64,000 bases of DNA, taken from the NCBI RefSeq assembly GCF_054482595.1, contig NZ_CM137008.1. The stretch is one strand, 5' to 3'. Shown piece by piece: positions 21,001-27,000 of this stretch. Made by a program: the position numbers. Positions within the stretch are counted from its first letter, which is position 1. Each line of letters starts with the position of its first letter.

Positions 21001-24000
21001 GTGACCGTTGTTCTTAAAGATGCCCAGGGTAACTTTATTACTGATGGTGTCGCGCAGCTTAATGAGGAAAACGTACAAGTCAGGAACGCTGATTCTATTC
21101 AAGGCAATAATTGGGTTTACAACGGCAATGGGCAATATCAAAGACAGTATATGGCGCATTTTGCGGAAGCGAACTTGAATGCGCAACTGAAGATGGCTGG
21201 TTGGAGCGATGCCAATTATTCAAAAAACTACACTATTAACAGAGGTGAAGTAAGTATGCTTCGTTCACAGCTTCGTATACGCGAAGTTTTAGTGGTAGCT
21301 GGGGCGGATATACCTGTTAGTGTTTTATTATCTGATGAATTTGGTAATCCTGTGAATGACGGTCTGGATTTGCTGACAGATGATGCAGTGTACTTACAAA
21401 ATGTGGAAAAGAAACATTGGTCCAGTTGGACATTTGTAGGTGATGGCAGATATGAGCGTACCTATATGGCTTACAAAGAAGGAGAAAACTTAAACTCTTA
21501 TCTACATATTAATGGTTGGTATGTAGGCGGGCAACCGTCTTATACCATCCTTCCTTTTGTGGAAGTCGAGTCGCTTAGTGTCAATGGTGCAAAATTCAGG
21601 GCGGCAGATGGTTTTCCCAAAACAGGGTTTGATGGTGCTAAATTTACACTGATATTAACCCACAATATGAAAAACACAGATTATAATTGGACCAGTGGCA
21701 TACAGGGTATTCAGGTCGATAGTAATGGTATGGTGACTTTAGAATTCATTATCAATAAAGAGGTTACTATTACAGGAACGCCGAAAAGCAATAAAGGGAA
21801 TAAAGTTACATATAAATTCTCACTGCAGAAATGGTTTATACCTCAAGGGATAATTCAGGAATCATGGAGTGAGATGAATTCATATTGTATTGGTAATGGT
21901 TATATACTACCGTCTAGTACGGATTTAGTTGGGAGTTCAACTAGCGGTGCTGTCCCGCGAAAAGTAGGTTCGTTATGGGGTGAATATGGTAATCTGACTT
22001 CGTATGACGGAATATTTCGCGCTGAACATTATTGGCTCGACAGCGGTATGATATTTTATCCAGGAGATGGTCATCTCTCGATTGCGCCACGTTCATCCCC
22101 ACTGTGTATGAAAACGTTCTGATATTATTTATGTTATTGCCCTGCATCAGCAGGGCAATTTATCTTCGCTCTTACGCAGAACTCCGCATCACACCAATAG
22201 TATTAAATTCATTTTTCACACTGAGCAAACGGGGGTCATGAAGCAACACATTTGACCATAAATCACTCTCTTTAATTAATTGTTGCCAGCGCTTTTCATA
22301 TTCTTTTTTACCATAAACAGTGTAAATTAACGGCAAAATCACACCATTGATTTTGTTAGTGTTAATATTTGCCAGTAACTTCATAATGTCATTTTTTATA
22401 GATGCGCCATAGATCAGAAACTTCGTATAAAGCGAGTTAACGCAGGTGTAATCAAGACCATGTTCAGGTTCAAGTTTAAGCAATAAACTTTTGGCTTTGT
22501 CATTATGTCCTTTCAGTGCCATGAACATAGCCAGAATAGATATAATAATTGGATTGTTACAGGTGTTTTGACTGTTAAGATTTAATGCAAAAGATATCGC
22601 GTTATCGAGGGGGGATGTGTAATAAAGTATAATTAATTTAAGAATGCTTATGCCCATTTTATTGGGTTCAAGAGCAATGCTTTTTTCTATTAGATTAAAT
22701 GCTCTTGCAAGGTCACCATTCAAAAAACATAGCAGAGACTGATAATAATAAACGTCTGGCGAATTAGGTTTGAGTAAATGTGCTTGTTTAAATAGCACAT
22801 TAGACACTGAATGTTCATCTTTTAGCCCACTGATTAAACCCAGTAAACCCAATGCCTGAGAATTTGAAGGGTTAATTTCCAGAGCCTTTTCAATAGAGGT
22901 TACTGCCGTAGTTATTGCTTGTTTTTGTTCACTGAGTCCAAGGAGTGCTAATGATATATGGCATTCCGCCAGGCAACAGTAGGGCAAGGTATTTTGCGGT
23001 TGCGTACTCACACAATCTCTAAATATTACTAATGCTCGTTTCAAACTTTCTGGTGTATAACGGTACATTTCCATCCTGCCATTCATATACATAACAGCAG
23101 AATCCAGAGATGGCATTTGTTGTGTATTAATGGATTTAAAATTAATGTTGGGTATTTTTTCAATAAGAATATTAATTACTTGTGATAATAGCACGGAAAG
23201 GGGATTGTCGGGGTTGAAATCAATACTTTGATGATCAATCAATTTATGCGTTCTGGCATGGATTAATTCAATAAATAAACGCCAGTTTTTACCATAGTGA
23301 ACGACCTGACCCATAATATAATATTCTGGACCTGTTTTATTGATAAACTGATGGATGGTGGAGAAATCACAGGCTTCATTCGTTACCGAAGCGGGTAAAA
23401 TATCTAAACCACAAAAAGCATATTTTGAAAGGCCCTGGACCAGTTCGTAATGGAGTTTTAGAACATTGATCGAACCTTCAGTACGAAAGGGAAAAACGGC
23501 AAGAGTGGTGGTCGACTTTACCGGTTCATTATCGGTTACAATCACAATGGGGACAGTAAAACGGTATCCACGACCATAGACCGTTTCGATATACTTACAC
23601 TGTTTATTCTCATGCAAAAGTTTACGTAATGCATAAATACACCGTGTTAAAGATTCATCGCTGGCAACACTCGCGCTCCAGACCTTATCGATAATCTCTT
23701 CTTTACTAACAATTTCACCGTCAGCATTAAGTAATAGAATGATAACGCCAAGTTCTTTCGGGGGAATATGATATTCTTTGTTTTTGAATAATAATATTCC
23801 ATTGTTTTTTAATACAAAGTCGCCAAATATATATTGTTGTGTGTTATTTTTTCCATGTTGCAGTTGCATAGAACGCTCCTTCCATTTTCTCTATTCATAG
23901 TATTAATTTGATCTGTCTAAAATAAAGTATTGGCAGAATTGCTCTATCAAAAAACGCTCATTTTGTAAGATTGTGATGAAAAAATGAATGAAAGGTGATG

Positions 24001-27000
24001 CTTAATAATATGAAACGCTGGTCCCATTTTACGGGACCAGATAGTGGACGATAATTGTAGGTGTTACTTAATCAGAAACGTAAATAATCTTTCGCTGAAT
24101 CAAACAACGCAGTAATGGTTGAAGATAATAATTTTATAATTGTATCGTAGGTGGAGTTGGCTGTACTGTATTTAGTCGTTATAACCTGCACGTCGGTTTT
24201 CATGTTTTCTGCCTGGCCATTATAACCCGCCAACCATGCCTGGTATTCAGCCGTGCTTATTTCGTAGCCGGTGAATTCTTTAGATATATTTTTTTCCTTC
24301 CCTTTATCATCCCTGTGAACCATTGAGTCTGAAGACTGGCTCATACTGTCAATAATCTGAGGGTTGGGAATAATAATATACAGACCGCTACCTTGCGGTT
24401 CAACTTCGACTATAGGAGAAGGTGTGCGGTGTTTTGGGTCGGGTGGAATAACCGGAAGTCCTAAAGCGGCGCACCATTTTTCTGCTTCTTCCAGTGGAAC
24501 ACCAATTTTGTCAGCAGGTGCCGGAGGGTATAAAACATAGTCTGGATTGTAATGATAATGAAAATCACCATTAGGATATTTATCGATATAATAAAAATGC
24601 ATCAAGGCTTTTTGGAATGCATTGACATCAAAAACTATCGCATCGCCTTTTTTATTAGAGTGAGTCCATTTTCCCATATTGCTTTGGATATGTTCACTGA
24701 AGTCCTGCCAGTATGCGCTCATTATCTCAACGCTATTTGCATAGATTTCGAGGTAGTCACTACCGAGCACACTCATCAAATCAGCAATATCACTACATAT
24801 ATATTTATCACTTTTAAATTCGCTTGAACTACTGGCCGTTAAAGTACTGCTGGTTGCTGAACTTCTCATTTCAGGCGCAAAACTATCTAAAGAAGCGATA
24901 ACGTGAGTTAAGGTTCCTTTGGTCGTTGCCATTGCACCTGGCCCGGTTGTGTTGTGAGCAACGTTAGCCAGGGTTTTTCTCACAGAGTTATGCAGGGTCA
25001 ATATTTTAGCGGGATCCTTTAATTTTCCGTCAATAGTATTAACATTTTCTGTAAGCTGCAGAACGTTTTTTATCAGCAAATAACTTTCGTGTAAGAGCGC
25101 AGATCCTTTCTCTGACAGGTTCTCAGTTGGGAAATTTCTGAGCATGTTTTTAACGAAGTTAAGTTGTATGTCGTGCTGGCATTTCCATTCTTCATTTCGC
25201 GGGCTACGTTCACTGACCAAAGTTGATAGTTTCTCAACATCTTTCTTGAGCATAGCGCCAATATTATTATCCTTACTGGCGCTGTTATGCAAATTTCCCT
25301 CGCTTTTGCTGTTTACCAGTTGATGAGGCTCCTCACTTTGCGAGGATGCCTCTTTGAGAGGAATGTTTGCATTCTGCTGACGTAGAATATCTATATTTAA
25401 ATTATTATCTTTATTAATCATGAGTCATTCCTCCTTAAATATAATTAACTATTATTGCAATAATTTATGAGCGAATGCCTTGAACGATAGCGCTATCAGT
25501 ATCAATAATTGTTTGTATTATTTGCTGTAATAAATTGAGTGCCTGATCTCTTCCTTGAACATCACGATTAATTTGATCCAGATAGCTACTCATAACTGAA
25601 TGCATAACATTTTTAGCTTGCTCAACAATGTCTTTTTCTGCATGAGTAGTGCTTTCTAGAAATCTAGATGTTGCTCGAATTGATTCATTGCTAAGCTGTG
25701 AAAGTACATCTGCTTTACCTATAGTAAAATATTTATTATACCTATTGTTATGTTTTGTACTAATTTTCTCGTTTGTATCTCTAATCTTTTCTAGAGTAGT
25801 TTCTTTTTCTTTATCATAAGATTTCAGCGCCTCTTCTTTTTGTTCTTCATTAAGACTCGTATCTTTCGTTGTATTTTTTATTTTTTCATCTATTTGTTTG
25901 AGAGAAGCTTGTTGCTCTCGAACTTCCCTTTTTGATGCGCGCTGTACATCATCATCAGTTCTATTGATAGTATGCTCTTGGTCAGGTGTAAGGGTTACCA
26001 TCTTTTCGGGATGGCTTCTGTAATTTGCTACGGCAGATGCTGTGGCCCCGACTGCGCCAACTCCTGACCCGATAATAACACCTACCGAACTTGCTGCTGT
26101 GGCGCGTTCGGTTTCTTTTCTCTGATACTGGACAAGTTGTTCAAAAACATTACTCATAATAGCCTCAGACATAGCAGAGGCTTTATACATTGATGTGAAT
26201 ACCCTTAAAAATTCCTCCATTACAACCTGTTGTCGCATGGTCAAATTATCTAGCATATCAAGGATATTAAATTTAGATATTTTAATGGTGGTCTGTTCTG
26301 TAGAACAGCTTGATTGACTGGATGTAATTGTAGCTTTGTCAACGTCGCTCTTCGAATTATCTAGTGTATTCCTTGAGTAATTAAGATTATCCAATAGTTT
26401 TACTCTTAGTTCCGGACAGACTTCTCTGTCTGTATTTTTTAATATTATAAACTGAGAGATTATGTCGTGCTTAATATCTTTAAGGTTATAGTATTGCACA
26501 ATTTTATTATCATTTGATATGTTGCTTTCTTTGCTATAATCTCTATCAAAGATTTTTTTATCGAGATTGTTAATATTAAGTGTGCTGGTCGCATTTTTAA
26601 TTTCATAGGTGGCCATGTTAAAATCCTCTTATACGATAGAATGGGAAGCAAATTTTAAGGCTTCAGTTCGGTGTTGTAATACTCGTACCATCTGGCTTAC
26701 CTCTTGTTCGACGGTTTTATCCACCCTTTGCAATACTGAAAGCATTTGTTCACGCGTTTTTGAAAGATTACTCATGTCCTGTTGTAAAATTGCCATGTCG
26801 GCAGAGTTTTCAGCAACACAGTAATTCATTATCGATGTTGCTGTTTCACAGATAAGTAAGCCTATTTTCTCCAGGCCATTGCTTATCTTGGCAATCAACT
26901 TCAAAACTACGACTGATGTTTGTATCATACTGCATACGCTGTCTAATACCTTTATAATATTTTTTGAAACGGAATTAATAATAGATTCAATGGTTGATTT

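Follow-up and report, generated by a model that had tools for sequence, protein, structure and literature searches.

An InvF/MxiE-type box and a candidate activator-dependent promoter for eilA in the eipD–eilA gap of Escherichia coli

We investigated the interval between eipD, a needle-tip gene, and eilA, which encodes the HilA-family master regulator for a cryptic type III secretion system, in a 64,000-nucleotide stretch of DNA (the window; contig NZ_CM137008.1, RefSeq assembly GCF_054482595.1), which encompasses the selC/eip island of Escherichia coli and is 100% identical to strain XH990. The interval carries a conserved box of the InvF/MxiE type, the same as that found upstream of the translocator chaperone gene eicA, with a correctly spaced −10-like element. 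We consider it probable (about 0.6) that eilA has its own promoter, dependent on EivF, the InvF homologue of ETT2 (the second type III secretion system of E. coli), together with a chaperone, closing a loop from EilA to EivF and back to EilA; the start, the activator and the loop are predicted by comparison of sequences. For transcription of the regulator, the sequence-only reading had offered its own promoter, read-through from the translocon operon, or both. The own-promoter part is supported, and is partly published: green fluorescent protein driven by a 500-bp fragment upstream of eilA was induced in LB:DMEM (Fox 2020, PMC7058095), so that promoter activity in or near the gap had already been reported. 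What is added here is a defined architecture and the shared box.

The box upstream of eilA and its predicted promoter

The earlier description of a non-coding, AT-rich interval between the SipD-like stop codon and the regulator start holds exactly. Positions 23870–24071 are the whole eipD–eilA intergenic gap, 202 bp long and 33.2% GC (island, 37.6%; window, 50.5%), and both flanking genes lie on the minus strand. This gap far exceeds the others of the co-oriented gene string, which measure 9, 55, 12 and 43 nt, and RefSeq annotates the same two genes with nothing in between. We found no conserved open reading frame (ORF) in the gap; Rfam covariance models gave no match at E≤1 over 21900–29500, and none at the gathering score in the gap. 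A 26-aa ORF (23947–24027) was discarded, having its start inside the hairpin described below and an ATG that is missing in E. albertii, and the apparent mini-ORF ATGAGCGTTTTTTGA is merely the InvF/MxiE-type box.

We propose that the gap would serve as the eilA regulatory region, made up of a boundary and then a promoter. Transcription of eicA-eipBCD would meet a stable, U-poor hairpin, where part of the transcripts would probably be stopped or stabilised. Some 60 nt beyond the hairpin would lie an activator-dependent eilA promoter, with the InvF/MxiE-type box at about −48 to −33. After the box would come TATTTT as a weak −10, a transcription start predicted near 23912 and a strong ribosome-binding site. 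EivF, aided by a class II chaperone (EicA or YgeG), would be the activator, and EilA may also act directly through a HilA-box-like repeat just upstream. The elements concerned, and the genes they adjoin, are as follows.

23945..23960, minus strand: InvF/MxiE-type box TGAGCGTTTTTTGATA, 16 nt, within the 20-mer 23943–23962
23919..23924, minus strand: predicted −10 TATTTT, 20 nt after the 16-nt box, placed by conservation and spacing
23911..23914, minus strand: predicted eilA transcription start, extrapolated from the MxiE 33-bp rule, giving a 5' untranslated region of about 42–45 nt
23876..23883, minus strand: strong Shine-Dalgarno GGAAGGAG, read from the sequence, 6 nt before the eilA ATG (23869), kept in E. 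albertii
24018..24040, minus strand: stem-loop CUGGUCCC-GUAAAAU-GGGACCAG, beginning 31 nt past the eipD stop
23974..23992, minus strand: HilA-box-like direct repeat TTCATT-N6-TTCATCA
29217..29232, minus strand: second box copy TGAGCGAATTTTGATA, upstream of eicA, followed by an extended −10 TGgTGAAGT at 29198–29190
33202–33221, plus strand: third, orphan box copy AATGAGCTATTTTTGATAGT (21 bits; 0 of 1000 shuffles as high), in the setC-selC spacer beside a rhuM fragment
24072..25421, minus strand: eipD, needle-tip gene of the SipD/IpaD type, at the end of the eicA-eipBCD string (RefSeq; 449-aa ORF; Pfam T3SS_TC PF06511, E=3e-33)
22172..23869, minus strand: eilA, HilA-family regulator (RefSeq; 565-aa ORF; NCBIfam HilA/EilA 950 bits, cutoff 589)
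28658..29155, minus strand: eicA, SicA/IpgC-class translocator chaperone (NCBIfam LcrH_SycD 113 bits, cutoff 104.8; best match SicA, 151 bits; Pfam TPR_3)

The degenerate 20-mer upstream of eicA is repeated exactly at eilA, with three copies in the 64 kb against 0.01 expected. We scored candidate sites with a position weight matrix (PWM) trained solely on six chaperone-operon promoters, Salmonella PsicA among them. Sense-strand matches were found upstream of eilA/hilA-like genes in four lineages, at 73–91 nt from the ATG: E. coli scored 21.2 bits, E. albertii 18.7, Yersinia 21.4 and E. fergusonii 19.8. Of 1000 shuffles, none reached the E. coli score and no more than 2 reached that of any lineage. 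The matrix found no match upstream of Salmonella hilA, upstream of the adhesin gene air, or in the eipD coding sequence.

The eilA box is identical to its E. albertii counterpart at 19 of 20 positions. At eicA, 24 nt are invariant between the two species and the extended −10 (TGnTGAAGT) is conserved. Other E. coli carry a second, divergent eip-like island (L013/L014; the variant island), where the same box with the same TGnTGAAGT stands upstream of the chaperone gene; this island has a different insertion site and the same gene order, with a regulator 57% and a tip protein 41% identical. The box is also present upstream of the chaperone gene in an atypical Salmonella T3SS (type III secretion system), as well as in a Yersinia cluster. 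Directly upstream of the eicA box in the window stands a short GC hairpin, GCCCAACGGATGGGC (minus strand, 29240–29254), which is not conserved in E. albertii and may be the yicS 3' end.

Two characterized elements resemble the eilA box. Salmonella PsicA, TGGGCGTTTTTTGAAT, a string that we checked on real Salmonella DNA fetched via the SicA protein sequence, matches it at 13 of 16 positions. According to a paper citing Darwin & Miller 2001, the InvF site of PsicA was validated by mutagenesis, and the InvF site overlaps the −35 of sicA, sopB and sopE. The MxiE consensus, GTATCGTTTTTTTAnAG, agrees with the eilA box at 12 of 16 positions, including 8 of the 9 strictly conserved positions that are essential for activity.

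The spacing downstream of the box is consistent with that of these promoters. The mRNA 5' end lies 33 bp downstream of the end of an MxiE box, and applying this rule places the eilA start at about 23911–23914 and the −10 exactly at the conserved TATTTT, which matches the −10 consensus at 4 of 6 positions. E. coli and E. albertii share the conserved segment TTATTTTA, with flanks that diverge. In PsicA the −10-like TTTAAT lies 21 nt after the box, and −10-like elements lie 20–22 nt past the boxes overall. With the sigma-70 consensus and a 16–18 bp spacer, no sense-strand site in the gap reached 9/12; the best sigma-70 match, with its −10 in the hairpin loop, was rejected as not conserved among strains.

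Sequence comparison indicates that the gap is under selection. Its identity between E. coli and E. albertii is 68%, compared with only 42% (eilA) and 29% (eipD) at four-fold degenerate sites of the flanking genes and 76% for the EilA protein, and the stretch 23982–23943 reaches 80–90%. The 44-nt core 23962–23919, running from the box to the predicted −10, is invariant but for one C/T position in 11 of the 11 fetched E. coli copies. Within E. coli, conservation over the full gap is unremarkable, with 14.9% of sites variable compared with about 9% in the flanking genes.

A hairpin, a HilA-box-like repeat and a second motif class

The stem-loop after eipD has a predicted free energy of −16.1 kcal/mol (z −4.1), and none of 200 shuffles was as stable. 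Folding of the whole gap was not significantly better than that of shuffles (z −1.6); that of the hairpin alone was. E. coli copies show a single stem change, C to U with a G-U pair retained, and the hairpin is kept in divergent strains. At the same position, E. albertii has a non-homologous GC hairpin (−15.0) with the tail AUUUUUAUUU, a good U-tract, and the variant island has another non-homologous GC hairpin (−15.6) without a U-tail, so that a stable hairpin follows the tip gene in all three eip-type islands (3/3). A consensus terminator scan lists the E. coli site, where the stem is adequate and the U-tract weak; the tail CGUUUCAUAUU scored T=1.09 and d=−29. Because of this poor U-tail, the E. 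coli hairpin would at best be a leaky terminator, or else it probably stabilises the 3' end of the operon mRNA. Some read-through from PeicA into eilA may occur. A long inverted repeat in the gap (23894–23906 / 24002–24014) shows no compensatory change and is therefore treated as chance.

The HilA-box-like repeat lies just upstream of the InvF/MxiE-type box. The pattern TTCATT-N(4–7)-TTCATC, derived from the HilA box of Salmonella PprgH, has a single match in the window, at 23974..23992 (0.03 expected; 3 of 100 shuffles match), and TTCATT-N6-TTCATCA is present at all the fetched E. coli eilA loci except one (L002). The HilA box is reportedly composed of two direct hexamers with a 5-nt spacer, consistent with Salmonella PprgH, TTCATTctattTTCATCA, which has N5, and the region upstream of ETT2 etrB likewise has N5. 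Compared with the Salmonella HilA box (PprgH, PinvF-1), the gap carries the same hexamers as PprgH, TTCATT and TTCATCA, but they are not 5 nt apart: 6 nt lie between them in E. coli, and the E. albertii counterpart, GTCATC-N3-TTCATCA, has 3 nt. The position differs too, as the Salmonella box sits at −54 to −37, whereas the repeat in the gap stands upstream of another activator box. As a separate observation, a HilA-type box with canonical spacing, TTCATTattatTTCATCA, occurs in the ETT2 locus of strain D8 (L027 18689–18705, minus strand), with TATAAT 21 nt downstream; it lies upstream of a LuxR-type regulator gene annotated in the etrB/ygeK position.

A second motif, TCATCA-N8-TCATGW, was found upstream of air, of ETT2 eprH and eivF, and of a Yersinia prgH homologue, and is absent from the eipD–eilA gap. 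It is a candidate binding site for EilA/YgeH. The copies in the window and in ETT2 of strain D8 are:

11210–11229 of the window, plus strand: TCATCAtttgctaaTCATGA, about 70–85 nt upstream of air
22646–22665 of L027: copy at ETT2 eprH
35800–35819 of L027: copy at ETT2 eivF

Candidate activators and alternative explanations

The strain has genes for both a candidate AraC-family activator, eivF in the source genome (XH990 935502–936251; InvF is the best NCBIfam match, its 185 bits falling short of the equivalog cutoff, 259), and a class II chaperone, eicA in the window. In strain D8, eivF and eilA co-occur, and ETT2 contains a single strong InvF/MxiE-type box (L027 13955–13974), about 85 nt upstream of ygeF-ygeG-ygeH; the ORF that follows it is ygeF-like (163 aa), then come ygeG, encoding a chaperone, and ygeH, of the HilA family. 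Since the same box occurs at eicA and at ygeF-ygeG-ygeH, EivF with a class II chaperone is the most likely activator. The promoters of eprH, eivF and air lack the box; the first two genes correspond to prgH and invF, which are direct HilA targets. The two motif classes would thus fit a cascade in which EilA/YgeH acts on air, eprH and eivF, and EivF with the chaperone acts on eicA-eipBCD, ygeF-ygeG-ygeH and eilA.

In papers that cite Sheikh 2006, EilA is described as activating the eip genes, air/eaeX, and eivF and eivA of ETT2, and EilA can take over HilA function in Salmonella. Given that EilA switches on eivF, a loop in which EilA leads to EivF and free chaperone, and these to eilA and the translocon operon, would close; by analogy with Shigella and Salmonella, it would be gated by translocator secretion. 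The positive feedback put forward in the sequence-only reading is thus plausible as a loop, but the route proposed for it, in which the regulator activates the operon that reads into it, is not favoured, as the shared box points to EivF and a chaperone. A match to the AggR site (W7-TATC) was sought in the gap and not found, and eilA is also absent from the AggR study. Two reviews from 2024 state that the mechanisms, that of EivF included, are unknown.

Several observations weigh against an EivF-dependent eilA promoter. The searchable literature describes no eilA start site or functional cis-element, and eilA was reported not to be expressed by strain 042 in LB. A sigma-70 PWM gave at best 7.45 bits in the gap, where shuffles averaged 8.0 and 292 of 500 were as high. 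The eilA box departs from the MxiE consensus at four positions, including G1 and position 13, which is G, and in the variant island our box PWM found no box in the 136-bp gap between tip and regulator genes. The orphan box at 33202–33221 has no obvious downstream gene and no well-spaced −10, and its setC-selC spacer belongs to the backbone, at least 80% of it being present in 3618 of 5426 genomes, including K-12 derivatives; a box in the backbone with no obvious target means that the box alone is no proof of a live promoter. The orphan may be a relic of a lost T3SS-regulated gene. Furthermore, EivF and YgeG of O157 together did not activate the MxiE-box genes icaR and icaT, so that EivF activity and specificity are unproven, and a resistance region cuts ETT2 short in the source strain.

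These points leave room for other explanations. It is unlikely, in our estimate, that eilA has an ordinary H-NS-silenced sigma-70 promoter in which TTGATA (23950–23945; 5 of 6 positions as in the −35 consensus) acts as −35 or UP-proximal element and the box is an inherited relic without an activator. Such a promoter would suit the AT-rich region, the H-NS repression of the paralogous ygeH promoter and the resemblance of MxiE boxes to H-NS sites; a Shigella promoter with T at box position 15 became MxiE-independent, and the orphan box in the K-12 backbone fits a relic. However, the 20 nt from TTGATA to TATTTT is a poor spacing for sigma-70 alone, and conservation covers the full 16–20 nt, beyond TTGATA, in four lineages, with repetition at two chaperone operons.

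Two further alternatives seem to us improbable. In one, eilA would be expressed mainly by read-through from the eicA promoter, with the elements of the gap acting on RNA, in processing or stability. The genes are co-oriented, the U-tail of the hairpin is poor in E. coli and lacking in the variant island, and the variant-island regulator has no upstream box, all of which would suit read-through; it is opposed by the promoter activity of the cloned 500-bp fragment, which lacks PeicA, by the good U-tract of the E. albertii hairpin, and by the modest folding of the gap and its lack of an Rfam match. In the other, EilA itself would bind the conserved block and regulate its own gene directly, positively or, as for Salmonella hilA, negatively, without EivF. 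Salmonella HilA binds and represses its own promoter (PMC2912647), EilA can replace HilA, and the repeat at 23992–23974 resembles the PprgH box and is unique in the window. Yet direct autoregulation would have to rely on a hexamer repeat whose spacing departs from the N5 of PprgH and etrB, by one in E. coli (N6) and by two in E. albertii (N3). The InvF-type box is the best-conserved element of the gap and does not occur at eprH, eivF or air, the promoters expected to be targets of a HilA-family protein. An eilA promoter dependent on EivF and a chaperone is the reading that we prefer.

Gene context and comparison with known systems

Among 5426 complete genomes of E. coli, 730 contain the eipD–eilA junction (window 23600–24400). 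A scan of species-representative genomes with EilA peptides found only two E. coli contigs, mis-binned in metagenome-assembled genomes. The remaining genes of the neighbourhood are:

26629–28410, minus strand: eipB
25465–26616, minus strand: eipC
11296–22122, plus strand: air/iatC, giant adhesin gene, convergent with eilA

The 3' part of eipC (25465–25900, minus strand) is hypervariable among E. coli, with 41% variable sites compared with about 9% in eipD and eilA, and eipC has two annotated allele lengths, 1152 and 1131 nt, which suggests allelic dimorphism or recombination. A 60-aa ORF (28466–28648, minus strand; a hypothetical protein in RefSeq) without a Pfam or NCBIfam match separates eicA from eipB, whereas sicA and sipB of Salmonella have no gap between them. 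Towards the end of the window, a JUMPstart element (Rfam 55 bits; 61745–61783, plus strand) suggests an RfaH-dependent operon nearby.

In the source strain, ETT2 is cut after eivC/eivI (NZ_CP019359.1 943082–965605; L026) by IS1, followed by a class 1 integron (dfrA12, aadA, sul1) and then by mph(A), a mer operon and aac(3)-IId. This strain probably has an incomplete secretion apparatus, with eivF, eip and eilA remaining.

ETT2/eip is widespread in E. coli, and carriers of the eilA region include bloodstream isolates of sequence type 69. Its secretion activity has never been demonstrated, and the targets of its regulators are undefined. The cis-element shared by eilA, the translocon operon and ygeF-ygeG-ygeH provides a testable circuit, and this circuit a practical handle for switching ETT2/eip on. 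[quoted passage not shown]

Among the closest known counterparts is Salmonella PsicA, the InvF-SicA-dependent promoter of sicA-sipBCDA, which shares 13 of 16 box positions and, in the layout predicted for eilA, the overlap with the −35 and a −10-like hexamer about 21 nt downstream. The eicA copy of the box occupies the place equivalent to the PsicA site, upstream of a SicA-like chaperone gene. The difference lies at the regulator: Salmonella hilA has no box, whereas here a copy stands upstream of the HilA-family master regulator, and Salmonella InvF/SicA is stated to have no effect on hilA expression (PMC2912647).

Promoters with a Shigella MxiE box, activated by MxiE with IpgC, have the same box-to-start geometry as predicted for eilA, with the box ending at −33, and because that activator is chaperone-dependent, expression follows secretion activity. 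The Shigella box differs at G1 and position 13, and the cognate activator here would be EivF. The gene virB lies just downstream of the ipa translocator genes. Its promoter, that of an upstream-tier regulator, is subject to feedback from MxiE/IpgC, an AraC regulator that depends on a chaperone, as proposed for eilA. That feedback is negative and works by countering VirF, with no MxiE box reported there, whereas the geometry of the eilA box predicts activation. If this is true, ETT2/eip would represent a cascade of the SPI-1 family with a chaperone-gated loop onto its top regulator, an arrangement that is stated not to exist in Salmonella and is negative in Shigella.

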